Assembly: GCA_046497275.1 (NCBI GenBank)
Contig: JAWOFX010000007.1
Span: 60,001 to 92,000 of the forward strand
Direction of reading: 5' to 3'
Length of the DNA: 32,000 bases
Origin: Promethearchaeia archaeon
Lineage (GTDB): Archaea; Asgardarchaeota; Lokiarchaeia; Sigyniarchaeales; SOKP01
Shown: positions 8,953 through 22,849 of the stretch, in pieces
How the letters are laid out: every line of letters begins with the position of its first letter
Numbering within the stretch: position 1 is the stretch's first letter
Notes under the pieces: generated by a model
Told to the model about the DNA's origin: nothing
Databases searched by the model: none
What the model saw: only the letters and a program-made list of their open reading frames with translations
Translations under genes and position numbers: made by a program

Positions 8953-9147
8953 TTAATAATCATCCATATATGCATCTTCAATATCTAGATCCTCTTCCTC
9001 CCAATTATCTTCCCCGATGTCATCCCAATCCCCATCATTATATTCATCAAAATCTCCATCATATTCTTCTTCAAATTCTTCATCCCAATCATCATCATCG
9101 TCCCAATCTTCTTCTTCCTCTGGACCATATATTTCTAAATTCTCCAT
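8953..9147 (-). CDS. Small, extremely acidic protein (64 aa)
   Basis: Strong SD GGAGGT upstream of the ATG; 37 of 64 residues are D/E, with no K/R/H. Confidence 0.7.
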   Translation of the reverse strand: MENLEIYGPEEEEDWDDDDDWDEEFEEEYDGDFDEYNDGDWDDIGEDNWEEEDLDIEDAYMDDY

Positions 9148-11251: not shown

Positions 11252-11383
11252 TTAATCATTGAAGGTAATAAACTTAGTAGGATCACATTTGGAGTCTTGT
11301 ATTGCAAATGTACAGAAAGCAATTTGATCTTCTATGAGTTCAAGAATTATTTCAGATTCAACTCCCTTTTGTTTTTTTTCCAT
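11252..11383 (-). CDS. Possible 43-aa ORF at the end of the DGC operon
   Basis: ATG at 11383 overlaps the end of the upstream DGC gene: MEKKQKGVESEIILELIEDQIAFCTFAIQDSKCDPTKFITFND. No recognised homology. Confidence 0.3.
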   Translation of the reverse strand: MEKKQKGVESEIILELIEDQIAFCTFAIQDSKCDPTKFITFND

Positions 11384-11789
11384 AAAACTCATCAACTTTT
11401 TGAGCAATCTCTTCCGCAATAATTTTTGCTAATTCTAATCCTTTTTCACCTAATCTTCGAGGATTTTCTGGAACTAATTCGGGATGACTGTCTATAAATT
11501 TCTTTACATTAATAGTTGCTGCGGGACTCCCGCTATATTGATCAACAGCAATTCTTGCACATTCTTCTTCGCAGCCCTCTATTGTTATAGTCGGGTGGTT
11601 TTTTGCAAAATCTCTTTCCTCTTGTCCACCATGTCTTTCTAACCCTCCTGCCATGAAAAGAGGTTGACACAAGATAATAGTATTATTGGGACGTAAATCC
11701 TCAACTACCATTCTTGCTGCTGCTCTTGTTAGAGTCCCTCCAACTAAATCCTCACCGCTACATGCGATAATTCCTACTTTCTTCTTCAT
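11358..11789 (-). CDS. DGC-domain putative Zn/metal-binding protein (paralog 3, EGC variant)
   Basis: IIACSG ... LCQP ... ITIEGCEEECA (four Cys); SD GAGGTGA upstream. Confidence 0.85.
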   Translation of the reverse strand: MKKKVGIIACSGEDLVGGTLTRAAARMVVEDLRPNNTIILCQPLFMAGGLERHGGQEERDFAKNHPTITIEGCEEECARIAVDQYSGSPAATINVKKFIDSHPELVPENPRRLGEKGLELAKIIAEEIAQKVDEFYGKKTKGS

Positions 11790-12209
11790 TTATTCATTCA
11801 CCTCACCATTTTCAAGTAATTTCTCTACTTTATTTGCTACTTTCTCAGCTAATTTTTGGGACAGCTTTTTGGTATTTTCCTCAATCGGTATTATTTTCTG
11901 TTCAGGCTTAAGATCTCGATTTTCTTTAATTACATCTATAGTCATAAAAGTTGCATCAACATTTCCCGCAGCTTCATTAATATCATTGTAAGAACATTTT
12001 AATGGACAACCGTCGATAGCAATGACATAATTTTCTTTTAATCGTTCAATTACTTCTTTTTTGCCTTTCACAATTAATGGTAAGCATTCGATTTCCGCTT
12101 TCCCTTTAGCCAATTCATCTACAACGATATAAGCAGCTTCTCTGCCAATACTGCCAAAAACCTTACCAATCCCACTACATGGGATAATATATACTTTTTT
12201 TTCATTCAT
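11790..12209 (-). CDS. DGC-domain putative Zn/metal-binding protein (paralog 2)
   Basis: IIPCSG ... ECLP ... IAIDGCPLKCS. Confidence 0.88.
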   Translation of the reverse strand: MNEKKVYIIPCSGIGKVFGSIGREAAYIVVDELAKGKAEIECLPLIVKGKKEVIERLKENYVIAIDGCPLKCSYNDINEAAGNVDATFMTIDVIKENRDLKPEQKIIPIEENTKKLSQKLAEKVANKVEKLLENGEVNE

Positions 12210-12214
12210 AATGA

Positions 12215-13090
12215 TCAATTTTCATCTTTATTTTGTCGACTTTCTTTTTCTGCTTTGTTTTTCATATAATTAAAATAATTTGTACCATTCATTACCAATT
12301 GTTTATCTTCCTCAAAATTCCTCAATTCAAGTTCTAAGAACCATCCTTGTTCATAAGGGTCTTGATTCATCAATTCTGGTGAATCTTCTAAGTTTCTATT
12401 AACATTAATAACTTTTCCAGATCCGGGAGAGATCAATTGTAAGACAGTTTTAGTCGACTCAAAACTCCCCACGTCGTCAAATTGTTCAATTTCTTTTCCA
12501 ATCTCTGGTAGATCTACAAATAAAATATCAGATGCTTTGTTCTGTAAGTAATCAGTTATCCCCATTAAAGCCGTGTCACCTTCAGGTTTAATCCAACAAT
12601 CATTTTCATTGAAAAAATATCCCTCTTTTGGAACCCTAAAATGATATTTATCGATTGTTGTTTTAAAGTATTCGATTTCTTCAAACTTCTTTTTAGTAAT
12701 AGACTTTTCTTTAGGTTTCTCTAATTCCTCAATAATACTTTTTACTATAGCATTAATCAAGTTCTTACCATCTTGGTTGAGAACTAAACCTGTTCCTGGC
12801 TTAAAATCAAATTTTTTGATCATATCTGGTATAAAAATCCTTTTAAATATTTTTTCCTCTCGCTCTTCAATTAAATCTGTAGCGCACCTTGTCATACATC
12901 CATCGATTACTAAGACTTTAGAATCCTCTACAATTTCTTCATATTTCTCATCCCCTCTGTTTAAAGACACAGGACAAACGATCTCTATTTCAGGTTTCTT
13001 TTCATTTAACTTCAATGCAACATTTCTTGCTATTACTCCCAATGATTTATCTAAACCATTACAAGGTAAAACACACAGTTTTTCTGTCAT
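12215..13090 (-). CDS. DGC domain fused to a glycine-cleavage-H-like lipoyl carrier
   Basis: N-term VLPCNG...VCP...VIDGCMTRCA. C-term YFFNENDCWIK..GDTALMGITDY..NKASDILFVDLP..G......VGSFESTKTVLQLISPGSGKVINVN.......LMNQDPYEQGW is GcvH-like, with the lipoyl Lys214 (12449-12451) intact. Confidence 0.92.
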   Translation of the reverse strand: MTEKLCVLPCNGLDKSLGVIARNVALKLNEKKPEIEIVCPVSLNRGDEKYEEIVEDSKVLVIDGCMTRCATDLIEEREEKIFKRIFIPDMIKKFDFKPGTGLVLNQDGKNLINAIVKSIIEELEKPKEKSITKKKFEEIEYFKTTIDKYHFRVPKEGYFFNENDCWIKPEGDTALMGITDYLQNKASDILFVDLPEIGKEIEQFDDVGSFESTKTVLQLISPGSGKVINVNRNLEDSPELMNQDPYEQGWFLELELRNFEEDKQLVMNGTNYFNYMKNKAEKESRQNKDEN

Positions 13091-13105
13091 ATTATATCGA
13101 CCCTA

Positions 13106-13405
13106 TTATTGACTATTTCTTAATTTTTTTATATATTCTTTAATTTCTGTTTTATCTGGGAAATCAAGGGCATCTGGAGAACAAGCCTTGGAACATGCTC
13201 TACAAAAAACGACACAATTATTAGGATTTTTAACTATCAATTGTTTTTCTTCTTGCTCTCGCACTTCGAATACATCATGAGGACAAAATTTTACACATTC
13301 CATACAATAATCGCATTTATCATAATCAATTCTGGGATACCAGTCTATCTTATTTCTTGGAACACCCATAAAGGTTTCAGTTTCAGAGTCATACTCTTTA
13401 CTCAT
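13106..13405 (-). CDS. 2x[4Fe-4S] ferredoxin-like protein
   Basis: CDYCMECVKFCP and CVVFCRACSKACSP. Confidence 0.92.
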   Translation of the reverse strand: MSKEYDSETETFMGVPRNKIDWYPRIDYDKCDYCMECVKFCPHDVFEVREQEEKQLIVKNPNNCVVFCRACSKACSPDALDFPDKTEIKEYIKKLRNSQ

Positions 13406-13790
13406 CTTTTTTCTCCTCCTCTAATTCTTTCAATGTTTTTTCTACTAAATCTACAGCTTCTTGGGTGCTCATTTCTCTAATATCTAAAGGAATAAGATCT
13501 TTTTTAACATCAAGACCTACATTTTTAAAGGCATCTCTAAAAAGCTTGTATTGCATATTAGGAGCGCACCCTCCTACAATATATTTTCGACCAGGACGTA
13601 AAAAATCCTCCAAAAAGCGGTCTCCATCTTCCTCACAAAGTTGTGGATGTATAAAACCATATTCAACGGGTAGCTCAATACGAACTTGGTTTATAAAATC
13701 CCAAATATCCATTTTCGCAAATCCTGGGCATTTTCCTGTACAGACACACATTATAAAACCTACTTTTTTATCTTTCGATTCAATACTCAT
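13398..13790 (-). CDS. Stand-alone HdrA N-terminal-domain-like Fe-S protein
   Basis: KVGFIMCVCTGKC, HPQLCEEDG, YIVGGCAP, LDIRE parallel the HdrA N-terminal CxC / LC / ACSP / NIRE pattern; no FAD domain follows. Confidence 0.78.
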   Translation of the reverse strand: MSIESKDKKVGFIMCVCTGKCPGFAKMDIWDFINQVRIELPVEYGFIHPQLCEEDGDRFLEDFLRPGRKYIVGGCAPNMQYKLFRDAFKNVGLDVKKDLIPLDIREMSTQEAVDLVEKTLKELEEEKKDE

Positions 13791-13878
13791 CAAAAATCAC
13801 TCAGCTTTTCTTTTTTTTATGGAAATAATTATTTTTAATAAAATCACAAGATTTATATTATATATTCGTTTATAAATA

Positions 13879-13904
13879 TATGTATTAAAACGCATAAATG
13901 CATA
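13879..13904. promoter_or_regulatory. Imperfect inverted repeat in the divergent promoter, candidate ArsR operator
   Basis: TATGTATT-N10-AATGCATA, containing GCATAAATGC, directly upstream of arsR. The AT-rich context weakens it. Confidence 0.35.
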
Positions 13905-13925
13905 AAAATTATTAGTTTGATTAAA

Positions 13926-14246
13926 ATGGAAATTGATGATTTAAGATTGGAAGTTTTAAAAGCATTATCAGATGAAACAAGGTTAAAATTATTAGATTAT
14001 TTGAAACATGGAGAAGAGATATGTGTTTGTGAAATTGAAAGAGATTTCGACAAATCTCAATCTACATTATCGCGTCATTTAAAAACTCTCGAAGATGCAG
14101 ATATAATTAAGAGTCGAAAAGTGGGGATAAAAAAGTTTTTTAGTATAAAAGATACTCAGGTTTTTAAAATATTAGCGGTAATTGATAATCTAATTAAAAG
14201 AAATAAAAAATATGAAAAAATTATTGAAATTCAGCAATCATTATAA
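13926..14246 (+). CDS. arsR: ArsR/SmtB repressor, As(III)-sensing CVC type
   Basis: KALSDETRL, EICVCEI, SQSTLSRHLKTL. Confidence 0.92.
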   Translation: MEIDDLRLEVLKALSDETRLKLLDYLKHGEEICVCEIERDFDKSQSTLSRHLKTLEDADIIKSRKVGIKKFFSIKDTQVFKILAVIDNLIKRNKKYEKIIEIQQSL

Positions 14247-14257
14247 GAGGTGAGCAA

Positions 14258-14548
14258 ATGACAGAACTCAAACAAGATGAACAGAAAAATAAATTAAATG
14301 TTGATATTTATGTTCCATTGAATGTGTGTGCATGTCAATGGGAAAGTTTCATGAACTTGGTATTTAGAGTTTTAACGGAATATAATGAATATATAGATTT
14401 CGAAACGAAAAATCTTAATTCTGAGGAGGCCCGCGAATTGAACCTTCACGGAAATAGCATTGTTATTGATGGTAAAGAGGTTGTTACAAGTTCCTTTGCG
14501 CTTAAAAGGAAATTACCAGAAATTTTGAAAGAAAAAGGTTTGATATAA
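14258..14548 (+). CDS. Small thioredoxin-like-fold protein with CxC
   Basis: SD GAGGTGA; VDIYVPLNVCAC followed by a helix and late SIVIDG. The fold assignment is pattern-based only. Confidence 0.55.
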   Translation: MTELKQDEQKNKLNVDIYVPLNVCACQWESFMNLVFRVLTEYNEYIDFETKNLNSEEARELNLHGNSIVIDGKEVVTSSFALKRKLPEILKEKGLI

Positions 14549-14549
14549 T

Positions 14550-15023
14550 GTGAGAGAACTAGAAGAAAAATTTGAAAATATCATATTGATACCTTGTTCA
14601 GGTTCCGAATATCATGGGGAGTTAGCCCGTCGGGTAGCTATAAGTTTAGCTGAAAAGAGTGAAATCTCCATGTTGGCTTCAATGACATGCTCAACCATTT
14701 TTCTTAAAAATGTGTTATTAGAGAAGGAGCAACTGGTTGAAATATCAAAAAATCACTTGAAGAATTCATTTGTTGTAATAATAAATGGGTGCCATACTTC
14801 TTGTTCAAGTCAAATTTATGAACATTTGGGAATTTCACCAGATCTAATCATCTCCGTTCAAGACGTTATCCCTAAACAACGCATTAATTTCAATGATATA
14901 AATTCATTTAAAAATCAAAGAAAATTGAGTGAAATAAAGACTGAAGACATTCAAAAAGTAGTGGATCACGTAATAAGGCAACTTGAAAATAGAGGTCTTG
15001 ATATAGAAACAATTAAGACTTAG
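14550..15023 (+). CDS. DGC-domain protein (paralog 4, NGC variant)
   Basis: LIPCSG ... MTCS ... IINGCHTSCS; GTG start 1 nt after the upstream stop. Confidence 0.8.
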   Translation: MRELEEKFENIILIPCSGSEYHGELARRVAISLAEKSEISMLASMTCSTIFLKNVLLEKEQLVEISKNHLKNSFVVIINGCHTSCSSQIYEHLGISPDLIISVQDVIPKQRINFNDINSFKNQRKLSEIKTEDIQKVVDHVIRQLENRGLDIETIKT

Positions 15024-15132
15024 GACTCAACAAATTTTTTTGAATCCAAACGATTGGGCAATTGTCTTTATCTACAGTATCGATCTTAGATAGTAAAAAA
15101 GATTCATTCAATTTTAATTACTAATCCCGATT

Positions 15133-15585
15133 CTACCTTAGAGGTCCCTTATAGTATTTAGACCCTGGACACCCAATACATTGATCTTTTATGAATGATT
15201 TACAAAATTTACAGCATACCCCACATGGAGAATCTTCATTCAATTGATCCAATTTTGAAACCTCAATTTCAAAAAAGAGATCTTTTCTTTCGTTTTCTGC
15301 TAAAATATGAATATTTGATTTTCTCACACCATTAATATTATAAAGTAAACACTGATTTGTAATGGTATCTACTAATTCAAAATCTTCACAAAAGAATAAA
15401 AGAAAAAGATTATATTCACCAATTAATCGGTGGTACATTAATACTCTTGGGCATTTTGAATAAATTTTTACCACATGTTCATAGGCTTGTGATTCCACTT
15501 CCAAAAGAAGTAATATGAGAGGAAAATTCAACTTTGAAATGTTTATTTTAATACAAGGTTTTATATAATTATTTTCTATCAATGA
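15133..15585 (-). pseudogene. Lrp/AsnC-family regulator with Cys-rich tail, HTH missing (5'-truncated)
   Basis: SLIENNYIKPCIKIN...CPRVLMYHRLIGEYNL...PCGVCCKFC....QCIGCP fits an AsnC ligand-binding domain plus Cys tail. The first 17 aa of the track ORF are the antisense of the neighbouring gene, not an HTH. Confidence 0.7.
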
Positions 15586-15802
15586 AAAAACGATATGTTT
15601 ATTGCAAAATGCCGTATATTTTGCTAATAAAAACATAAAAGAAATAGGGGATGCACTTGATCAAGGATTAAAAGTAATTGCATGTGAAGAAGATATCACT
15701 ATTCGTGGATTAAAAGGATATATTTACGACAACGTAGAAATAAAGGATTATGGCGAAATCATCGATATCGTGCTCTCAAATGATTCTATAATCAATATTT
15801 AG
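15584..15802 (+). pseudogene. DsrH/TusB-like sulfur-relay protein, 5'-truncated
   Basis: EKTICLLQNAVYFA...KVIACEEDITIRGL....IKDYGEIIDIV resembles DsrH/TusB. An in-frame TAA at 15566-15568 leaves no room for the N-terminus. Confidence 0.6.
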
Positions 15803-15924
15803 AAAATTATAAATATTTTTTTTATTTTTTCTGTTTAATTCATTATAATCTAATTTCATGCTAATTGATATTTTCGCATTTATGAATTCATACACTAGAG
15901 AAATGAGTTTTGTCCAAAATTATA

Positions 15925-15990
15925 CTATTCTAAATATAGGGGACCACCCTACGGTCCATCTTTCACTATTATTTTTTTGAAAGATCTCAT
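15925..15990 (-). pseudogene. Possible decayed 5' remnant of a CDGSH-type gene
   Basis: MRSFKKIIVKDGP*GGPLYLE* resembles the 'I.KDGPY...GG.PL' N-terminus of CDGSH Fe-S proteins; very short. Confidence 0.25.
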
Positions 15991-16129
15991 CCCAATTAGT
16001 TAAATATTGTTATTATTGTTTTCGTTTTACATTGAAATAATGTGCAAATTTTTCATTATTTTTTCCAAATTTTTTGCGAATAAGCGTTTTAAACTCGCCT
16101 TTATCCAATCTATTTCTCACCTTTTCTCA

Positions 16130-16495
16130 TCAACATCCGGAGTCAGGTTGTATATCGATCACGCTATCGGGATATAAATTGAAATGGATGTTCTCTCGTA
16201 ACGGCATAAATTTCCTTAGATTTCCATTTTCATCGGGACCATAAGCATATAATCCAATATCTTCATAAATCTTATCTTTTTTTGGATTCCATACTAATTG
16301 AAGATAATAATATATATAGTCTTCATATATCGGAAAAATCGATTCTTCGGGGTGCTCGTGTATATATTTATCAACCTTTGCTAATGCTTCTACGACATCC
16401 GTATCATCCTCAAGTTCAAGACTAAACGTTTTCCCTTGTTCTAATCCCGTTAATGGGATACTAATTTTTATTGTAACTTTTTTAATAGGAACCAC
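16130..16495 (-). CDS. Hypothetical protein, possibly beta-grasp/MoaD-like, ending in -SGC
   Basis: VTIKISIP..., LELEDDTDVVEALAKV, ...SVIDIQPDSGC followed by TGA TGA; GTG start. The fold is a guess from the pattern. Confidence 0.7.
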   Translation of the reverse strand: MVPIKKVTIKISIPLTGLEQGKTFSLELEDDTDVVEALAKVDKYIHEHPEESIFPIYEDYIYYYLQLVWNPKKDKIYEDIGLYAYGPDENGNLRKFMPLRENIHFNLYPDSVIDIQPDSGC

Positions 16496-16584
16496 CTATT
16501 TTCTTGTTAGTCATTTATATTTATTTTATTTCCCTTATTTTGTATTATTATTTTTTAAAAAAAATTATCCAAATCGATATTAGT

Positions 16585-16604
16585 AAATCTGAATCGATAG
16601 ATTT
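16585..16604. promoter_or_regulatory. Inverted repeat upstream of acr3, candidate ArsR operator
   Basis: AAATCT-GAATCGAT-AGATTT, with a second ATCGAT at 16573-16578. Confidence 0.35.
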
Positions 16605-16662
16605 TAATATAATAATATTATATATTATATAAAAATATCTAATAAGAAAATAATGAAATAAA

Positions 16663-17811
16663 ATGAATGAACAAAACAGTGAAAAAAAATGGGTTTGTCC
16701 TGAATGCGGACACGTTCACTATTACGAAGGTGCCCCACCGGATGAGTGTGTCAAATGTGGTGGGGGATTAGAGCTTTTCGACAGATTTCTCCCATTATGG
16801 ATCGCAATCTGTATAATAATTGGGCTACTACTTTCTCAATTTGTACCTAGAATCGGCGAAGTGATTGATTCTTGGCAAATCGGAGGGATTTCCGTTCCAA
16901 TCGGTATCTGTTTATTTCTAATGATGTATCCCGCAATGTTAAATCTTAAAAGTTCTGAGATTAAAAAGTTAGGGCAGAATCCAAAACCCATAATTCTCTC
17001 TCTTCTTTCAAACTGGATAGTCGCGCCCTTTGTGGGTTTGTCAATGGCACTGCTCTTTTTAGGAGGTAATCCACAGTTAGTACTTGCTGTAATATTACTA
17101 TCTAGTAGTCCATGCACTGCAATGGTATTAGTATGGGGCTGGTTGGCTAAGGGAAATCAAGAGCAAAATGTCATAACAACAAGTTTGAACACAGTTACGA
17201 TAATCTTTTTTTATATACCGATGGTTTATTTCTTAGTTACTCTGGCAAATCTTACATTAACAGAACCAATACCCTTAGATGTCTTCCAATTACTAATTTC
17301 ATTGGTGGTTTTTATAGGGTTACCACTGGCATTAGGGTTAGCAAGTAGAAAAACTCTAATTAATGCTAAAGGAGAATTGTGGTTTGATGAAACATATCGT
17401 CCCGCAGTCGGTAAGGTCGCGATCCTAGCGCTTTTGATGACATTGATTATTCTATTCTCATTAAATGGAGATGTTTTAATTAACAATCCCCTTCTATTAC
17501 TTCTAGTCACAACTCCATTGCTTGTTGGATTTGCTATTGTCGTTGGATATAACATTCTAGTTACTAGATTGGTAAAATTAAGATACAGACAAGCGATCAT
17601 TACAGTAATTATTGGCTCATCCAGTCATTTTGAAATTGCTATTGCTGTTGCAGTTGCGATGCATGGGGTTGGTTCGATTACAGCTTTAGGTACTACGATG
17701 GGTTTGTTTTGGGAAGTACCCGTGATGCTTTCATTGGTATATTTGGGCAGATATCTTGGAAGACGTGGTTATTGGAAAGGTTATGAAGAAGCAATAACAA
17801 AATATTCATAA
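16663..17811 (+). CDS. acr3: ACR3 arsenite/antimonite efflux transporter with N-terminal rubredoxin-like domain
   Basis: DRFLPLWI, LMMYPAM, SSPCTAMVLVW (conserved Cys), SSHFEIAIAVA, EVPVMLSLV; N-term WVCPECGHVHYYEGAPPDECVKCG. Confidence 0.93.
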   Translation: MNEQNSEKKWVCPECGHVHYYEGAPPDECVKCGGGLELFDRFLPLWIAICIIIGLLLSQFVPRIGEVIDSWQIGGISVPIGICLFLMMYPAMLNLKSSEIKKLGQNPKPIILSLLSNWIVAPFVGLSMALLFLGGNPQLVLAVILLSSSPCTAMVLVWGWLAKGNQEQNVITTSLNTVTIIFFYIPMVYFLVTLANLTLTEPIPLDVFQLLISLVVFIGLPLALGLASRKTLINAKGELWFDETYRPAVGKVAILALLMTLIILFSLNGDVLINNPLLLLLVTTPLLVGFAIVVGYNILVTRLVKLRYRQAIITVIIGSSSHFEIAIAVAVAMHGVGSITALGTTMGLFWEVPVMLSLVYLGRYLGRRGYWKGYEEAITKYS

Positions 17812-17862
17812 ATTTCTTTTTTTTTATTTAAAATAAAATTACTTTAATTAGATTTTTTTAAT

Positions 17863-18267
17863 ATGAAGCAACAAAAAAAACGAGAAATTATCAATAGTCT
17901 TAGGTTGTGTAAGGATTTATCTGATAAGGCTTTAGAGAATTATTTTGAAAATCTACGTAAAATAGGAAAGAATTTTACAAAAGATAACATGCTAAAAAAT
18001 CTTGAAAAATTCTTTACTATTCTTGGAAATGACACGAGATTAATAATCTTGAAGTTATTGAGTCAGAATGATTATTGCGTCTGTGAATTGGAAGCAATCT
18101 TGGATAAAGCTCAATCATCTGTCTCACATCATTTAAGATTGCTTGAAAAAGCGGGACTAATTAGAGGTATAAAAAAAGGTTATTTTACACATTACGAAAT
18201 TATAAATGAAAATTTTGAAAAATTTTTTAGATATTTATATGAGCAATACCCCTTCCTTAAGGATTAA
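17863..18267 (+). CDS. arsR: ArsR/SmtB repressor, CVC type, with N-terminal extension
   Basis: LGNDTRLIIL, DYCVCEL, AQSSVSHHLRLLE. Confidence 0.9.
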   Translation: MKQQKKREIINSLRLCKDLSDKALENYFENLRKIGKNFTKDNMLKNLEKFFTILGNDTRLIILKLLSQNDYCVCELEAILDKAQSSVSHHLRLLEKAGLIRGIKKGYFTHYEIINENFEKFFRYLYEQYPFLKD

Positions 18268-18306
18268 ATTAGGTAAAAAAAGTAATAAGAAGATTATAAA
18301 TATCTT

Positions 18307-18903
18307 TTAAGATTCTATATTATTTTTTAATTGGATGATACCTTCTTCTCTTGCTTTTAATAAATCTCGTTCGGAAACACCTTTCATTTCTTCACTTTTT
18401 AAAATTTTTTGTTTAAGGACTTTTCTAAAGATTAAATATTCATCTTTTCTGCTGATAAAAGGATCTACTTTTTCTGTATGAATAAATTCTTCTATGGATT
18501 TCTTTTTACCGTTATTGTTACCTTCAGTTAGATCGAATCTATAGTTTTTGTAAACTAAAAAGCAATGTACCATCGGTATATACGAGATTTCATATTTTTC
18601 GAGAATCATATTTACACCATCAGAAATTTGCTCCGTGAATTTATATATTCCCACATATTTAAAAAGGGGGATGGCGAGTTCCTCAGCTAATCCTGCAATA
18701 ACAGCATGTTTAGTAGTACATGTTCCTTTATTTTCTTTGAACAGAATCATTTTATCATCATAATCAGAGTTATATCCATACTCTAAATTGTGGACGTAAT
18801 GACAGGCTTCTTTAAACGATTTAATCCCTAATTTTAAAAATTTTTTGGATATTTCTCCTCGATCCGATATTTTCTTATCTGGTAATAAATTTAGATCATC
18901 CAT
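18307..18903 (-). CDS. Hypothetical protein, transglutaminase/papain-like Cys-His-Asp pattern
   Basis: GTCTTKH, PMVHCFL, RFDLT; fold inferred from pattern only. Confidence 0.55.
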   Translation of the reverse strand: MDDLNLLPDKKISDRGEISKKFLKLGIKSFKEACHYVHNLEYGYNSDYDDKMILFKENKGTCTTKHAVIAGLAEELAIPLFKYVGIYKFTEQISDGVNMILEKYEISYIPMVHCFLVYKNYRFDLTEGNNNGKKKSIEEFIHTEKVDPFISRKDEYLIFRKVLKQKILKSEEMKGVSERDLLKAREEGIIQLKNNIES

Positions 18904-18992
18904 AAGGATAATTCAGATCGATGATAATAAAATTTTAATGATTATGAATTATAAAGGTTATTACTCGCATTAATATTTAAAAAAAGAATATA

Positions 18993-19754
18993 ATGATTAA
19001 AACACGGGTAATATCTCCCAGCGTTACAGATCCCTATTTAAATCAAGCAATTGAAGAACTCCTCCTTGATTTAGTTTCTGATAGAGATTTTAATTTAATC
19101 TTGAGATTTTGGAAAGTAAAACCATCCGTAATTATCGGCAGAAACCAATCAATAAAAGCAGAAGTAAATATCAATGCTTGTAAAAAGTATCAAATTCCCA
19201 TAATAAGAAGAATTACAGGAGGAGGGGCGGTATATTTAGATTTAGGATGTTTGAATTTTTCATTTTATCTAAATAATAAATCACAATTTTTTTCAAAAAA
19301 TGTGAAAAGACTAAATAGATTCTTTTTATCAATTGTTATAAATGCCTTAAATAAAAACAATTTAGAGAGTTATTTTAAACCTCCAAATTCAATTTTTATC
19401 AATGGAAAAAAAATTTCAGGAAATGCCCAAATTTTTAGAAAAGATTCTGTATTACACCATGGAACCTTACTAGTAAACACAGATCTCAAAATACTTAAAG
19501 ATGTTCTCAAACCGAAAAACAATACTAATGCGGGGCGATATGTTCCCAGTTTGAGAGCCGATACATTAAATCTTAGTGATATCGATAATAATTTAACAAT
19601 TGAAAAGATTATTCATGATATGATTATACAAACTGAGAAGAAATTTCATCAAACATTTTACAGTATGAGTTTAACAGAAGAAGAGATAAATCTCGCAAAA
19701 AAGATGATGAAAGAAAGATATTTAAATCATAATTGGCAATTTCGAATTCCTTAA
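18993..19754 (+). CDS. lplA: Lipoate-protein ligase, catalytic domain only
   Basis: DPYLNQAIEE, IIGRNQ, RRITGGGAVYLD, GKKISGNAQ, LHHGTLL. Confidence 0.92.
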   Translation: MIKTRVISPSVTDPYLNQAIEELLLDLVSDRDFNLILRFWKVKPSVIIGRNQSIKAEVNINACKKYQIPIIRRITGGGAVYLDLGCLNFSFYLNNKSQFFSKNVKRLNRFFLSIVINALNKNNLESYFKPPNSIFINGKKISGNAQIFRKDSVLHHGTLLVNTDLKILKDVLKPKNNTNAGRYVPSLRADTLNLSDIDNNLTIEKIIHDMIIQTEKKFHQTFYSMSLTEEEINLAKKMMKERYLNHNWQFRIP

Positions 19755-19892: not shown

Positions 19893-20693
19893 TCATATTT
19901 TCTTACTTCTTAACCAGGTTTCCATGACAGCTGATTGGAATAATTTAATATGGTGTGGATCTCGTGTTTGAAAAGTGAGGAAATTATTTTCATCGCTTCC
20001 GATAACTGAAAATAATAATTCTTCACCATCTCTCAAAATTACAAACCTATCTTCTCCCTCATAAAGGCGAATAGATATATTATCTAAACTTTCCAATTCT
20101 TCCAATAATTCCGAATGTAATTCAATTCCAGGATTAATAAGGCATGAAATTTTCATATTCACAGAAGATCGTATTTCATATAGATACAAGTCTTGTAAAT
20201 CTATTATTGATGGTACGGCAATCATTACATTATGAAGAGCTTTTCCTAAAATATCTCTCATTTTTTCAATAATTTGGTCCTTTGTAATTTCTACCTTAGT
20301 ATAATCAATTATTCCCGTAACACTTGATTGAGCAGTTGATTCTCTAATCTTTTCGATTTCAGCTTCTAACTTTTCAAAGTCTTGATCTGATTTTTCCAAT
20401 TCTTCATTTAAAATTTTAACTTTCTCTTCGAGTTCTTCAATTATTTTATTTTTATCCTCTAATAATTCTTTATTTACGGAGGATTTTTTAATTTCCTTAA
20501 TTTGTTCCTCTTTTACTTTGATAGATTCTTCCAATGTTTCCACTTTTTCATTTTTCAAATCTAAAGAACTCTCAAGCGTGTCAAGTTGTTCATTTTTTAA
20601 ATCCAATGACTCTTTTAAAGTAGTTATTTGTTCGTCCTTAAGCTTAATTGAATCTTTAAGTGTTTTTATCATTCTATCTTTGTTTTCTTCCAT
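19893..20693 (-). CDS. Coiled-coil protein with four 14-aa repeats and a C-terminal globular (TrmB/PLD-like?) domain
   Basis: TLKDSIKLKDEQIT / TLKESLDLKNEQLD / TLESSLDLKNEKVE / TLEESIKVKEEQIK; C-term NISIRLYEGEDRFVILRDGEELLF. Confidence 0.7.
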   Translation of the reverse strand: MEENKDRMIKTLKDSIKLKDEQITTLKESLDLKNEQLDTLESSLDLKNEKVETLEESIKVKEEQIKEIKKSSVNKELLEDKNKIIEELEEKVKILNEELEKSDQDFEKLEAEIEKIRESTAQSSVTGIIDYTKVEITKDQIIEKMRDILGKALHNVMIAVPSIIDLQDLYLYEIRSSVNMKISCLINPGIELHSELLEELESLDNISIRLYEGEDRFVILRDGEELLFSVIGSDENNFLTFQTRDPHHIKLFQSAVMETWLRSKKI

Positions 20694-20848
20694 GGTCTAA
20701 GTCAAGTTTTATGATTAATATGTTTAATAAAATATTTCTTTTTAATATTATATAAAGTTTAAGCTAAAGATCTTTTGAAATTCCTAAATTTATTATCAGC
20801 TTACATAAATCCATTAAACATAAAAATATAATTTTTTATTAATATGAT

Positions 20849-21604
20849 ATGAATAACGGGAAAGATTTAGATCCTAAAATTGCTAAGTTAGAAGAGGATA
20901 TAAGAGATTTAATTAATAAAAAAATAGAAGAATCTGATGGTCTTCTATCGATTGTGGTTGGTACACATGGGGGAACTCTGATAGCAAGTGAATTTAAGAA
21001 ACCTATTGGAATGAGAGAACAAGAATTAACAGCTGCTAACAGTAGTATCTTATTTCTCTCTTCTAAATTGCTGAAAAATTCTCTAAATCAAGAAATTTCA
21101 TATGATTTAATAGCAGGTAAAGAAAGGATCGTTCTATCTGTACTAACTGAGCATATTACCCTAATTGCTCATTTAAATAGAGAATTAGCCGAGTTAGAAG
21201 GAATCAATACATATATCTCAAGTTTGAAAGAATTTTCACTTAAATTATCTGCGATCGTGGAAACTTCCGGAATTATAAAAGAGGAAATCTTTGTAAAATT
21301 AAAAAGAGCGATTCCTAATGCGATGGTTATTGCTATAATCACAAAAGAAGGTATGCCTATAAAAGTTCAATCAACAATGGCAGAACCAATGCTCTCTGCT
21401 ATGATTTCAGCCTTATACAAATTATCAGGGATATTATTAGAAAAAGGAGGCATTGAGTATACAGTTATTGGAGGGACAGCAGGATCTATAATAGTTCATG
21501 AGTTAGATGAAACTCGAATTTTGTGTGTTGCTGTACCTGAAGAGGCAGAAAATAAGAAATTAGGAACTTATATCGCAAAAATTAAATCTATAGTAGAGAA
21601 ATAG
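20849..21604 (+). CDS. Tandem roadblock/LC7-domain protein
   Basis: Two units: GLLSIVVGTHGGTLIAS...LTAANSSILFLS...LIAGKERIVLS, and AMVIAIITKEGMPI...LSAMISALYKLS...VIGGTAGSIIVH. Confidence 0.8.
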   Translation: MNNGKDLDPKIAKLEEDIRDLINKKIEESDGLLSIVVGTHGGTLIASEFKKPIGMREQELTAANSSILFLSSKLLKNSLNQEISYDLIAGKERIVLSVLTEHITLIAHLNRELAELEGINTYISSLKEFSLKLSAIVETSGIIKEEIFVKLKRAIPNAMVIAIITKEGMPIKVQSTMAEPMLSAMISALYKLSGILLEKGGIEYTVIGGTAGSIIVHELDETRILCVAVPEEAENKKLGTYIAKIKSIVEK

Positions 21605-22849
21605 TCATTCAATAATTTGGAATACTTTATCAGCAATTTTAAGCGCTCCAAAATATGATTTTTTATAATTTTGATCCTTATATAAAATAGTGCAAATTGG
21701 TTGATCTTTTTTAATCTTTTCATTAGGGGGCGTTTTATCATGGACATTTTCAATTTTATTAATTTTCTTAATTTTAGCAATATTTATATCATCAGGAGCA
21801 AATATAATCAATTTTGTGGTAAATAACTGATTTTTATTATTCTTTAGTTTTTCTATTATTTCGTTCCATTTAGAATAATTAAAACTCTCTATATGTAAGA
21901 ATAACAAATTAAGGTTTAACGATTCCTCCGATGCTCTTATGGAACCGGGTATTCTGGGATTAATTTCCATAAGAAAAGGCTCATGATCTCTTAAAACGAA
22001 ATCAAATCCATTAATACCTTTTAAGCCGAGACTTCTAGCTAAATATGAGGAAAGTTTAGAAATTTTAACAATATCTTGATTAGATAAATTTGATGGAACC
22101 ACATTACCACAATAGATAAAATCTTTAGGAGGATTCAAAATTTTTAATCCAATAATTTGACGGTTTATTGAGATTATCTGATTCTCTTTTCCGTTAGCTA
22201 TTACTGTACAACTTATAGGGATGCCATCAATATATTCTTGTATTAACCAGTCTTCGATACTGTCTCTCTCATTTATTAGATTGAATTGTAATTCAAATTC
22301 CTCTATCCTATTGATTTTGTAAACGTTTGTACCCCCAGAACTGGATTTCTTTTTTAATATAATAGGATAAGATATATCTAATTGATTTTTTTTAAAATCT
22401 ATTAAAGGTTTAGTATATGGGATCTTGAAGTCTTCAGATTCTAAAGATTGATAAATACTTCTAATATCTCGTGCTTGTCTAATCACTTCCAAATCATTAT
22501 TCAAATTTATAATTTGATAATTATTCTTCAAAATATAATCCAAGACCATTTCTCGTTCTTTAAGCGCATCGTCTAAGCCGCTTCCAATCAGTAAATAATT
22601 GATATTTGGATATTTTCTCAAAAGGTCGATTGTGTATTTGGCCAAATAAGATTTATAATCCTCTTTAATTTGTTCATATCTCATATCTAACTCTTTTGTT
22701 ATAATGATGCAATCTTTAACGTATGGGAAAAGATCAAGATCTCCAAAAAAATCCACCGCAAAAACTTCCAAACCTGCTCTATATAAAGAATATGCTAAAG
22801 GTCTTGTATTAAATCCGACAACTAAGATTGATTGATTCGGTCTCTTCAT
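21605..22849 (-). CDS. ATP-grasp domain protein (archaeal carboligase-like)
   Basis: VVGFNTRPLA, AVDFFGDLD, ILKKKSSSGG, LIQEYIDG, YCGN, GFDFV, EINPRIPG. Confidence 0.85.
   Translation of the reverse strand: MKRPNQSILVVGFNTRPLAYSLYRAGLEVFAVDFFGDLDLFPYVKDCIIITKELDMRYEQIKEDYKSYLAKYTIDLLRKYPNINYLLIGSGLDDALKEREMVLDYILKNNYQIINLNNDLEVIRQARDIRSIYQSLESEDFKIPYTKPLIDFKKNQLDISYPIILKKKSSSGGTNVYKINRIEEFELQFNLINERDSIEDWLIQEYIDGIPISCTVIANGKENQIISINRQIIGLKILNPPKDFIYCGNVVPSNLSNQDIVKISKLSSYLARSLGLKGINGFDFVLRDHEPFLMEINPRIPGSIRASEESLNLNLLFLHIESFNYSKWNEIIEKLKNNKNQLFTTKLIIFAPDDINIAKIKKINKIENVHDKTPPNEKIKKDQPICTILYKDQNYKKSYFGALKIADKVFQIIE

Follow-up and report, generated by a model that had tools for sequence, protein, structure and literature searches.

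A conserved five-gene cassette carrying a DGC-GcvH fusion is linked to arsenic resistance genes in Asgard archaea and bacteria

We analyzed a 32,000-nucleotide stretch of DNA (referred to here as the window), positions 60,001 to 92,000 of the forward strand of contig JAWOFX010000007.1 from a Promethearchaeia archaeon (assembly GCA_046497275.1), whose genome is 3.85 Mb long, approximately 29% G+C, and 98.9% complete. The subject of this report is a five-gene cassette within the window that encodes a lipoyl carrier domain fused to a DGC domain and that lies among arsenic resistance (ars) genes. Genes were called from a listing of open reading frames (ORFs) together with family scans against Pfam and NCBIfam, in which 20 window proteins were scanned. 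The cassette forms a leftward operon encoding, in order, an HdrA-N-like protein of 131 amino acids (13398..13793, minus strand), a dicluster [4Fe-4S]-type ferredoxin of 99 amino acids recognized by the Fer4 families (13106..13405, minus strand), the DGC-GcvH fusion (12215..13090, minus strand), and two stand-alone DGC proteins, DGC_b (11790..12218, minus strand) and DGC_c (11358..11789, minus strand). This operon is tightly packed, with overlaps of 8 nucleotides (the ferredoxin gene and the gene upstream of it) and 4 nucleotides and with gaps of 0 to 15 nucleotides. A rightward operon diverges from it across a 123-bp intergenic region (13794..13916) that, from the gene positions, is presumed to be the promoter and operator region, and it encodes ArsR1 (13917..14246, plus strand), the 96-residue protein CxC96 (14258..14548, plus strand), and a fourth DGC protein co-transcribed with the other two, DGC_d (14550..15023, plus strand). 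Farther to the right, an interval (15133-16495) containing an Lrp-like gene, a truncated DsrH-like ORF, and the gene for the small protein p121 (16130..16495, minus strand) separates DGC_d from acr3 (16663..17811, plus strand), which is followed by arsR2 (17863..18267, plus strand), an unknown 198-residue gene, and lplA (18993..19754, plus strand). All four DGC domains and the sole acr3 of the genome are confined to this one locus, and thus their grouping is more than would be expected by chance. The genes, their positions, and the tight leftward operon had been listed in an earlier note on this DNA and were all present, each passing its family model; the HdrA-N-like and CxC96 proteins, for which no Pfam family was found, are described below.

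The HdrA-N-like protein belongs to no Pfam family, and its only sequence-family match was a faint one to the NCBIfam HdrA model (E 0.008). Its AlphaFold model, for which 36 relatives were available in the alignment, had a pLDDT of 85, and Foldseek matched this model to the N-terminal domain of HdrA (7bkd_A, 5odc_A, and 8rvu_A) with a probability of 1.0 and TM scores of 0.59 to 0.63 over approximately 100 residues. The domain was matched in four solved Hdr complexes, and the match to MvhD was weaker. Five cysteines (C15, C17, C21, C52, and C75) are invariant and are positioned after strands 1, 2, and 3. The model therefore gives the product of 13398-13793 the fold of the N-terminal cysteine-rich iron-sulfur (Fe-S) domain of HdrA, with cluster binding as a prediction, and the HdrA-N label that the earlier note had attached to this protein is borne out by the fold. 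When scored against full HdrA (NF041778), the protein reached 14 bits versus a cut-off of 1400, and the structural matches covered approximately 100 of approximately 650 residues; it is therefore not a full-length, FAD-binding HdrA. The ferredoxin was found in 67 of the 70 related loci surveyed below and was directly after the HdrA-N-like gene wherever the order was mapped.

All four DGC proteins passed PF08859 with 42 to 60 bits versus a cut-off of 27 (60 bits for the fusion, 57.9 for DGC_b, 42.5 for DGC_c, and 48.8 for DGC_d), and DGC_b and DGC_c are clear paralogs of each other (hhalign probability of 99.8). The four conserved cysteines of the family, including the D/E/N-G-C motif, were recognized: alignments of relatives showed that cysteines 14, 45, 71, and 75 of DGC_b and 10, 41, 73, and 77 of DGC_c are invariant, as are C10, C65, and C69 in the DGC domain of the fusion, where C40 is mostly conserved. 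The model of the fusion (pLDDT of 91) contained a DGC domain with a flavodoxin-like alpha/beta fold, and the best solved match to this domain was 3pu6_A (Z of 9.6), the remaining matches being generic. 3pu6_A is an uncharacterised Wolinella protein for which a family was not identified: a DsrE query did not retrieve it, and no mention of it was found in the literature. The secondary structure of the model placed the four conserved cysteines at the C-terminal ends of strands 1 to 3 and at the start of the following helix, which is, in the model, the arrangement expected of a metal or cluster site. A profile search of the DGC domain against PDB sequences gave nothing below an E value of 0.1, and an ESM Atlas search with DGC_b gave no usable match outside PF08859. 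Homology between the DGC and HdrA-N-like proteins was considered and rejected, as their profile-profile probability was 0.8, which is not significant; the shared placement of cysteines after strands 1 to 3 is a topological resemblance only.

The second domain of the fusion is a close structural counterpart of glycine cleavage H proteins, aligning with pea H protein (1dxm_A) with a Z of 22.9 and a root mean square deviation of 1.0 over 131 residues. It scored 115 bits against PF01597 (cut-off of 22.2), 117.8 against NF002270 (cut-off of 117), and 113.7 against TIGR00527, just under the cut-off of 115.85. Its lipoyl lysine, K214, lies in the motif E-S-T-K and was invariant both in 15 and in 37 aligned relatives. 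The H-(E/Q)-W motif that is canonical in the two other H proteins of this genome is replaced by D-C-W (within N-D-C-W) in the fusion, and the cysteine of this motif, Cys165, is nearly invariant and occupies the position at which those two H proteins have Q or E.

ArsR1 and ArsR2 are ArsR/SmtB repressors that matched HTH_5 with 59.8 and 63.2 bits and NF033788 (cut-off of 55) with 82.7 and 74.4 bits, respectively. Both were confirmed to carry the C-V-C site that the earlier note had reported, and ArsR1 has no cysteines other than this pair. We searched for operators in 13794-13916 and in the second promoter region and found only AT-rich imperfect palindromes, with no shared motif and no callable operator; control of the cassette by ArsR is deduced from gene position. 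CxC96 had no Pfam or NCBIfam match and was found in 21 Asgard loci with an invariant C24-x-C26 motif, and the arsR-CxC96-DGC triplet recurs in Loki-type loci. An assignment of CxC96 to Thioredoxin_3 (PF13192) was rejected, since it came only from a language-model lead (0.88), the motif is CxC and not CxxC, and hhalign against bacterial Trx_3 neighbors gave a probability of 3.7. Acr3, an arsenite efflux permease, passed the ACR3 equivalog TIGR00832 with 287.7 bits versus a cut-off of 282.8 and was the single match in the genome; arsR2 begins 51 nucleotides downstream of its gene. The N terminus of Acr3 (16663-16790) has a CPxC...CxxC extension resembling a zinc ribbon or rubredoxin (RUBY_RBDX, E 0.001, below the cut-off), and an extension of this type was present in 1 of 22 related Acr3 proteins (L029). 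The p121 protein, which ends in G-C and belongs to no family, was found in 12 Asgard loci, mostly adjoining acr3, and its resemblance to ThiS/MoaD/Urm1 is a weak language-model lead (0.84 or lower).

We investigated how widely the cassette is distributed by scanning one genome per species, which yielded 70 loci encoding a DGC-GcvH fusion. All five core families were present in nearly all of these loci, and their order was identical wherever it was mapped. The hosts were Asgard archaea and members of at least seven bacterial phyla (Bacillota, Actinomycetota, Chloroflexota, Desulfobacterota, Armatimonadota, Acidobacteriota, and Planctomycetota), including Loki-, Heimdall-, Jord-, Frey-, and Thor-type Asgard archaea, Acetobacterium, Eubacterium, Dehalococcoidales, Desulfovibrio, and Armatimonadia. 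Of the 62 loci with an HdrA-N-like match, 42 had an ArsR gene no more than 1.5 kb upstream of the cassette, and CxC was present in all 44 such ArsR proteins. All neighboring ORFs were then clustered de novo and the clusters annotated. At least one of acr3, arsA, arsD, arsC, and arsP was found within 10 kb in 35 of the 70 loci, representing six of nine taxon groups; of the 36 loci that span at least 18 kb, 21 had one or more ars structural genes. By family, Acr3 was found at 21 of the 70 loci, LMWP-type ArsC at 16, ArsA at 13, ArsD at 10 (these 10 being Bacillota), and ArsP at 8. The annotated recurring neighbors included neither gcvP nor gcvT. This survey was the neighborhood check on DGC-GcvH fusions that the earlier note had called for, and its outcome upholds the genetic link to arsenic proposed there.

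The arrangement of the genes around the core differed between lineages. Loki-type loci had the divergent arsR-CxC96-DGC operon with acr3 nearby; Actinomycetota had acr3-arsR divergent from the cassette and lplA directly downstream of it; Acetobacterium had arsC-arsC-DGC-arsR divergent from the cassette, followed by lpd-arsA...arsD; and Dehalococcoidales had the cassette followed by thioredoxin-CcdA and acr3. A dihydrolipoyl dehydrogenase (Lpd) gene, whose product passed TIGR01350 (514 bits), was directly after the cassette in 13 Bacillota loci. Such differences in arrangement favor recruitment on several occasions over synteny by descent.

A second survey compared the coordinates of the HdrA-N-like marker with those of ACR3 in 251 sampled Asgard genomes. 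The marker was detected in 42 genomes, one of which was excluded because the match was to a full-length HdrA, leaving 41; it was present in 6 of 55 genomes of the archaeon's own family and absent from the sampled relative of the same genus. ACR3 was found in 173 of the 251 genomes, usually in one or two copies. Of the 41 genomes, 20 had acr3 on the same contig within 13 kb of the cassette, 12 of them within 1 kb; in several others the locus was interrupted by a contig end. The proportion expected by chance is approximately 1%, given one or two copies of acr3 in 3 to 4 Mb. Three of these loci were fetched, and in two of them (L100 and L101) a single co-directional string consisted of acr3, the HdrA-N-like gene, the ferredoxin gene, DGC-GcvH, two DGC genes, the gene for the CxC protein, and arsR; one of these two also had two LplA genes 2 kb downstream. 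The HdrA-N-like protein was 62 to 83% identical between archaea and bacteria (loci L014-L083), versus 39 to 65% for the other cassette proteins. This degree of identity across domains, together with the patchy distribution of the cassette, points to strong constraint and to horizontal transfer between the domains, as would be expected of a horizontally mobile module.

The lipoate-protein ligase of the window, whose catalytic domain matched PF21948 with 172 bits, is one of two LplA proteins in the genome; the other is encoded on contig C69 and is 37% identical to it. Proteins with 30 to 37% identity to the window copy were present in 58 of 61 family genomes, and because the C69 copy shows this same level of identity, it is taken to be the housekeeping ligase. 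A full-length close homolog of the window LplA (57% identity) was found only in genome G252 and a fragment only in G263. In G252 this homolog lies in an island with the order arsR2-p121-lplA-acr3-DGC-CxC-arsR1, divergent from the cassette, and since the only close full-length homolog in the family occurs inside the same island, the window LplA is, as judged from these relatives, a rare, island-borne extra paralog. Other cassette-positive relatives that lack the island LplA presumably use the housekeeping enzyme. In Actinomycetota loci lplA is directly after the cassette, and in locus L045 an LplA gene and a radical-SAM gene adjoin it. The tie between ligase and carrier that had been read from the window alone was thus also seen in other genomes.

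The remainder of the genome modified two other statements of the earlier note. The absence of glycine cleavage genes that would explain the carrier was correct for the window, but elsewhere in the genome contig C109 carries a canonical gcvT-H-PA-PB cluster, which includes an H protein gene, and contig C69 encodes a third H protein. Similarly, the absence of ArsM was confirmed for the whole genome, in which nothing scored above the cut-off, whereas the absence of ArsC applied to the window only. A thioredoxin-type ArsC with a CTGNSCRS loop and two downstream cysteines (125 bits to TIGR02691) is encoded on contig C84, where it adjoins another CVC-type ArsR and a paralog of CxC96. Each of five other Asgard genomes with acr3-cassette operons had one ArsC-like gene elsewhere, and no glutaredoxin-type ArsC was found in those five genomes. 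An ArsC gene was located within 10 kb of the cassette in 14 of 21 Bacillota loci and, where mapped, was part of an arsC-DGC-arsR string divergent from the cassette. The suggestion that the module replaces the thioredoxin- or glutaredoxin-dependent ArsC route did not survive these findings: because ArsC is present in the same genomes and beside the Bacillota cassettes, the module is an accessory to ArsC and not a replacement for it.

The region of contig C84 that encodes ArsC (C84:51513-54313; L085 and L094), which is outside the window, is itself an arsR-divergent string that contains the ArsC gene, the CxC96 paralog, an HgcB-like ferredoxin gene, and a gene for a 554-residue fusion. This fusion consists of a CpaM-like methyltransferase and an HgcA-like corrinoid protein (170 bits versus a cut-off of 275) with an N-V-W-C-A cap-helix motif, and in a second Promethearchaeia genome (L078:12720-14810) the same HgcAB-like pair occurs at a distance of 1.4 kb from the cassette. 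A link between hgcAB and arsenic has been proposed previously, and the C84 string echoes it.

Taken together, the above-described results make it probable, at roughly 0.6, that the locus is an island for arsenic (metalloid) resistance, centered on a previously undescribed cassette of five genes that is controlled by a CxC-type ArsR and joined by arsR-CxC96-DGC, acr3-arsR, and a dedicated LplA paralog, with arsenic-thiol chemistry on lipoyl and DGC groups supporting efflux. From the gene identities, the folds, the conserved cysteines and lysine, and the linkage to ars genes across phyla, we infer each biochemical step as follows. ArsR1 would release the divergent promoters once As(III) or Sb(III) binds its cysteine pair, and the island LplA would lipoylate K214 of the fusion. 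Electrons would pass from reduced ferredoxin to the cassette ferredoxin and then to the cluster of the HdrA-N-like protein, possibly through metal or Fe-S sites on the four-cysteine DGC domains, and this flow would keep the lipoyl arm in its dithiol form; in Bacillota, the adjacent dihydrolipoyl dehydrogenase would do so with NADH. Arsenic-thiol chemistry would then take place on the swinging arm of the dihydrolipoyl group and at the cysteine sites of the DGC domains: As(III) or organo-As(III) could be captured there and delivered to the efflux pump, or arsenic-thiol adducts could be supplied with reducing power. Of these two, capture followed by delivery seems the likeliest, given that the cassette has no tighter partner than acr3 and that ArsC is present anyway. 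The full scheme, in which a ferredoxin-driven Fe-S relay charges the protein-bound dihydrolipoyl arm and this arm, the DGC cysteine clusters, and Cys165 bind or reduce arsenic species and hand As(III) to Acr3, is offered tentatively.

Several observations weigh against an arsenic-handling role for the cassette, which is deduced from gene content and linkage. Half of the 70 loci had no ars structural gene within 10 kb, including several Heimdall-type loci and some from Acetobacterium and Eubacterium; many of these contigs were short. Within the window, 1.6 kb of other ORFs lies between the cassette and acr3, each of which has its own ArsR. Members of the ArsR/SmtB family respond to other metals and to thiol stress as well, and a CxC motif by itself is no proof that As(III) is sensed. 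The presence of ArsC in the same genomes means that a role for the cassette as an As(V) reductase is not needed. Each DGC domain has four invariant cysteines, a number better suited to zinc or an Fe-S cluster than to As(III) bound by three thiols, and for this reason the DGC domains may serve electron transfer or structure rather than bind arsenic. Finally, the thioredoxin/CcdA, AhpC-like, cysteine desulfurase, and IscA-like neighbors suit a general thiol or cofactor-repair role equally well.

This last point bears on two other explanations. The cassette could be a relay against thiol or peroxide stress in general, similar to the Lpd-lipoyl protein-AhpD/AhpC or Lpd-H protein-OsmC systems; since thiol and oxidative stress both follow from arsenic exposure, it would be induced along with ars genes, and the DGC domains would serve as disulfide-exchange partners. 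AhpC/Redoxin-like and DsbD/CcdA genes occur in six to seven Asgard loci, thioredoxin and DsbD/CcdA genes occur across eight groups, and Lpd follows the cassette in Bacillota, all of which would suit such a relay. Neither the window scans nor the conserved core contained a peroxiredoxin, OsmC, or AhpD, however; the dominant neighbors are arsenic transporters and ArsA, ArsD, and ArsC rather than peroxide genes, and disulfide exchange requires two cysteines, not four invariant ones, so that we regard this explanation as rather unlikely. As(III) poisons dihydrolipoyl arms and Fe-S clusters, GcvH acts in a lipoyl relay in Bacillus, and the island could accordingly supply or rebuild poisoned lipoyl and Fe-S cofactors, with the fusion acting as a scaffold for lipoyl assembly or relay and arsenic itself not being handled. 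LplA paralogs are found in or beside the island, a LipA-sized radical-SAM gene is beside LplA in L045 and L012, and Acetobacterium islands include a cysteine desulfurase (TIGR01977, 445 bits), a PF04060 Fe-S protein, and an IscA-like CC protein. Yet it is the five-gene core that is strictly conserved, the ligase, radical-SAM, and desulfurase genes being lineage specific, and this core has no radical-SAM sulfur-insertion enzyme. With a housekeeping LplA and a canonical GcvH already in the genome, and with the three or four four-cysteine DGC domains left unexplained, cofactor repair is unlikely.

The combination of an HdrA-like domain, a lipoyl carrier, and a dedicated ligase also echoes the sHdr-LbpA pathway, and the cassette could by analogy act on sulfane sulfur or on sulfur derived from thioarsenate, under an ArsR-type persulfide sensor. 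DsrH, DsrE, DsrE, and TauE genes are near the cassette in a Jordarchaeal locus, four to five Loki loci have a YeeE-type transporter, a DsrH-like gene, and small candidate TusA- or DsrE-like genes, and the window itself has the truncated DsrH-like ORF. Sulfur genes were found at 5 of the 70 loci, compared to 35 for ars genes, and no HdrB/HdrC CCG-domain protein or FAD-binding HdrA was found among the 20 window proteins or the annotated recurring neighbors. Known persulfide sensors use a distant pair of cysteines, whereas the cysteines of these ArsR proteins form an adjacent CxC in the DNA-binding region that is typical of metalloid and metal sensors, and we consider a function in sulfur handling very unlikely. 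The neighborhood might instead be fortuitous, an ordinary glycine cleavage H protein and its ligase having come to lie near an acr3-arsR pair, as the separate ArsR genes, the 1.6 kb of intervening ORFs, and the use of glycine cleavage by this genome would allow. The canonical gcvT-H-PA-PB cluster has its own H protein on another contig, and in both domains of life the fusion and its four partners stay together as one unit and repeatedly occur with ars genes, including acr3 in the same operon; an accidental grouping is scarcely credible and is already contradicted by the comparative data. The lineage-specific neighbors on which the competing explanations draw (desulfurase, IscA-like, and PF04060 genes; AhpC-like and CcdA/thioredoxin genes; DsrE/H and YeeE genes) are all less widespread than ars genes.

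Additional genes were noted around the cassette, both in the window and at related loci. A 55-residue ORF (11252-11419, minus strand) overlaps the 3' end of DGC_c and resembles the C-terminal part of a family of approximately 93 residues, encoded by a small ORF after DUF166 in Loki-type loci, of which the window copy is a remnant. DUF166 comes after the cassette in 17 Asgard loci but is on another contig of the present genome (C109:43754), which suggests a local deletion or rearrangement. At 15133-15802, a protein like the Lrp/AsnC ligand domain has a cysteine-rich C-terminal tail (CGVCCKFC...CIGC), and its gene overlaps the DsrH-like ORF of 66 to 77 residues, which is missing the first approximately 24 profile positions. 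In relatives the DsrH-like gene is grouped with a YeeE-type sulfur transporter gene and small neighbors, and the window ORF looks like a relic of a cluster of this DsrH/YeeE type. Farther to the left, a 64-residue ORF (8953-9147, minus strand) consists almost entirely of D, E, and W/Y, has mirror ORFs on the opposite strand, and may be a low-complexity acidic protein or noncoding. To the right, 19893-22849 encodes typical Asgard neighbors, a coiled-coil protein with a TrmB-like C terminus, a two-domain Roadblock/LC7 protein, and an ATP-grasp enzyme, and no link was seen between these genes and the island. At the Heimdall-type locus L041:11765-13153 (with equivalents at L040 and L042), a 462-residue protein with an N-terminal domain of the FMN_red/Flavodoxin_2 family, to which ArsH belongs, is encoded divergently beside the last DGC gene, with no other ars gene nearby. 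Acetobacterium islands contain a small IscA-like protein with two CC pairs encoded right after arsA (e.g., L079:16991-17269) and a radical-SAM/SPASM protein near the tungsten-cofactor maturase model (343 bits versus a cut-off of 380) whose gene adjoins arsR (e.g., L060:18276-19292).

Arsenite toxicity is classically ascribed to binding to dihydrolipoyl groups, and this picture would be reversed if the arsenic islands of Asgard archaea, acetogens, Actinomycetota, and other anaerobes are served by a dedicated lipoyl protein for which a ligase and an electron supply are also provided. We know of no chaperone for Acr3, and if the proposed arsenic role is correct, the cassette would provide the first chaperone or reductase partner for this pump and the first case of lipoic acid as a defense cofactor. 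It would also provide the first function for the DGC domain (PF08859) and a role for a free-standing HdrA N-terminal domain, and it would supply a missing component of anaerobic arsenic resistance. The claim is directly testable, because the same cassette is carried by the culturable species Acetobacterium woodii, A. wieringae, Eubacterium limosum, and E. callanderi.

We compared the cassette to systems that have been described. The view of the earlier note that this one was undescribed was supported by literature searches, which found no account of the cassette: queries on the cassette, on the DGC domain with arsenic, on GcvH with ArsR, and on lipoamide dehydrogenase with ars operons retrieved only a preprint on Pseudodesulfovibrio mercurii, and a paper on arsenate respiration in Fusibacter did not mention the cassette genes. 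The preprint, the only paper found to name PF08859, lists an arsR5-arsP-Thioredoxin_3-DGC operon of P. mercurii ND132 as differentially expressed in arsenic-grown cultures and leaves the DGC protein of this operon as function unknown (bioRxiv 10.1101/2022.10.17.512643). This operon resembles arsR1-CxC96-DGC_d in that a DGC gene is in an ArsR-headed operon beside a gene for a small thioredoxin-like or CxC protein, and by analogy it provides an independent experimental hint of a link between DGC proteins and arsenic, although it has no lipoyl carrier, HdrA-like protein, or ferredoxin. A second comparison is with ArsD.

ArsD (PF06953), a protein with a thioredoxin fold, is the As(III) metallochaperone of ArsA. 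Like the role judged most likely here for the DGC and lipoyl thiols, that of ArsD is to bind As(III) for efflux as a small cysteine-rich protein of an ars operon, but the two have no sequence or fold relation, the DGC domain being flavodoxin-like (3pu6_A, Z of 9.6), and ArsD coexists with the cassette in 10 Bacillota loci. An operon encoding GcvH-L, SirTM, a macrodomain protein, and LplA2 is known in Streptococcus and Staphylococcus, and it shares with the cassette an orphan carrier like an H protein, an LplA paralog of its own, and an association with stress response; GcvH-L (5a35) was a structural match with a Z of 14.5. No sirtuin or macrodomain genes are present here, and the H domain of the fusion is nearer to true H proteins (Z of 22.9 to 1dxm_A) and is fused to DGC. 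The carrier differs from the GcvH of glycine cleavage in turn, as it is not encoded with gcvP or gcvT and D-C-W replaces H-(E/Q)-W.

The nearest described systems are sHdr-LbpA and the Lpd-lipoyl relays. In sHdr-LbpA sulfur oxidation, an Hdr-like complex reportedly works with lipoate-binding proteins that have their own ligase, sLpl(AB), together with LipS1/LipS2, as is said to have been described by Cao et al. in 2018 and in later work from the Dahl laboratory. Common to both are a GcvH-like carrier outside glycine cleavage and the 2-oxoacid dehydrogenases, Hdr-related Fe-S proteins, a dedicated ligase paralog, and an ArsR-family repressor; the likeness of the window LplA to sLpl(AB) is an analogy only. 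Here, only the 130-residue N-terminal domain of HdrA is present, with no FAD domain, and no HdrB/HdrC CCG subunits were found in the window scans or among the annotated recurring neighbors. The carrier is fused to and flanked by four-cysteine DGC domains, which sHdr does not have, and the recurring neighbors are ars rather than dsrE, tusA, or sox genes. The Lpd-DlaT-AhpD-AhpC relay of Mycobacterium tuberculosis and the Lpd-H protein-OsmC relay of the Trichomonas hydrogenosome likewise use a protein-bound dihydrolipoyl arm as the reductant for thiol-based detoxification, and the Bacillota cassette followed by Lpd is similar to them. Unlike these relays, the cassette core has no AhpD, AhpC, or OsmC, its context is arsenic rather than peroxide, and in most lineages electron input seems to come through ferredoxin and the HdrA-like domain rather than NADH and Lpd. 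The defining partners of the nearest described systems, HdrB/C and a full-length HdrA for sHdr-LbpA and AhpD, AhpC, and OsmC for the Lpd relays, are thus absent here as judged by the family scans, and we class the cassette as a lipoyl-protein thiol relay and ars-island accessory that is both widespread and previously undescribed.

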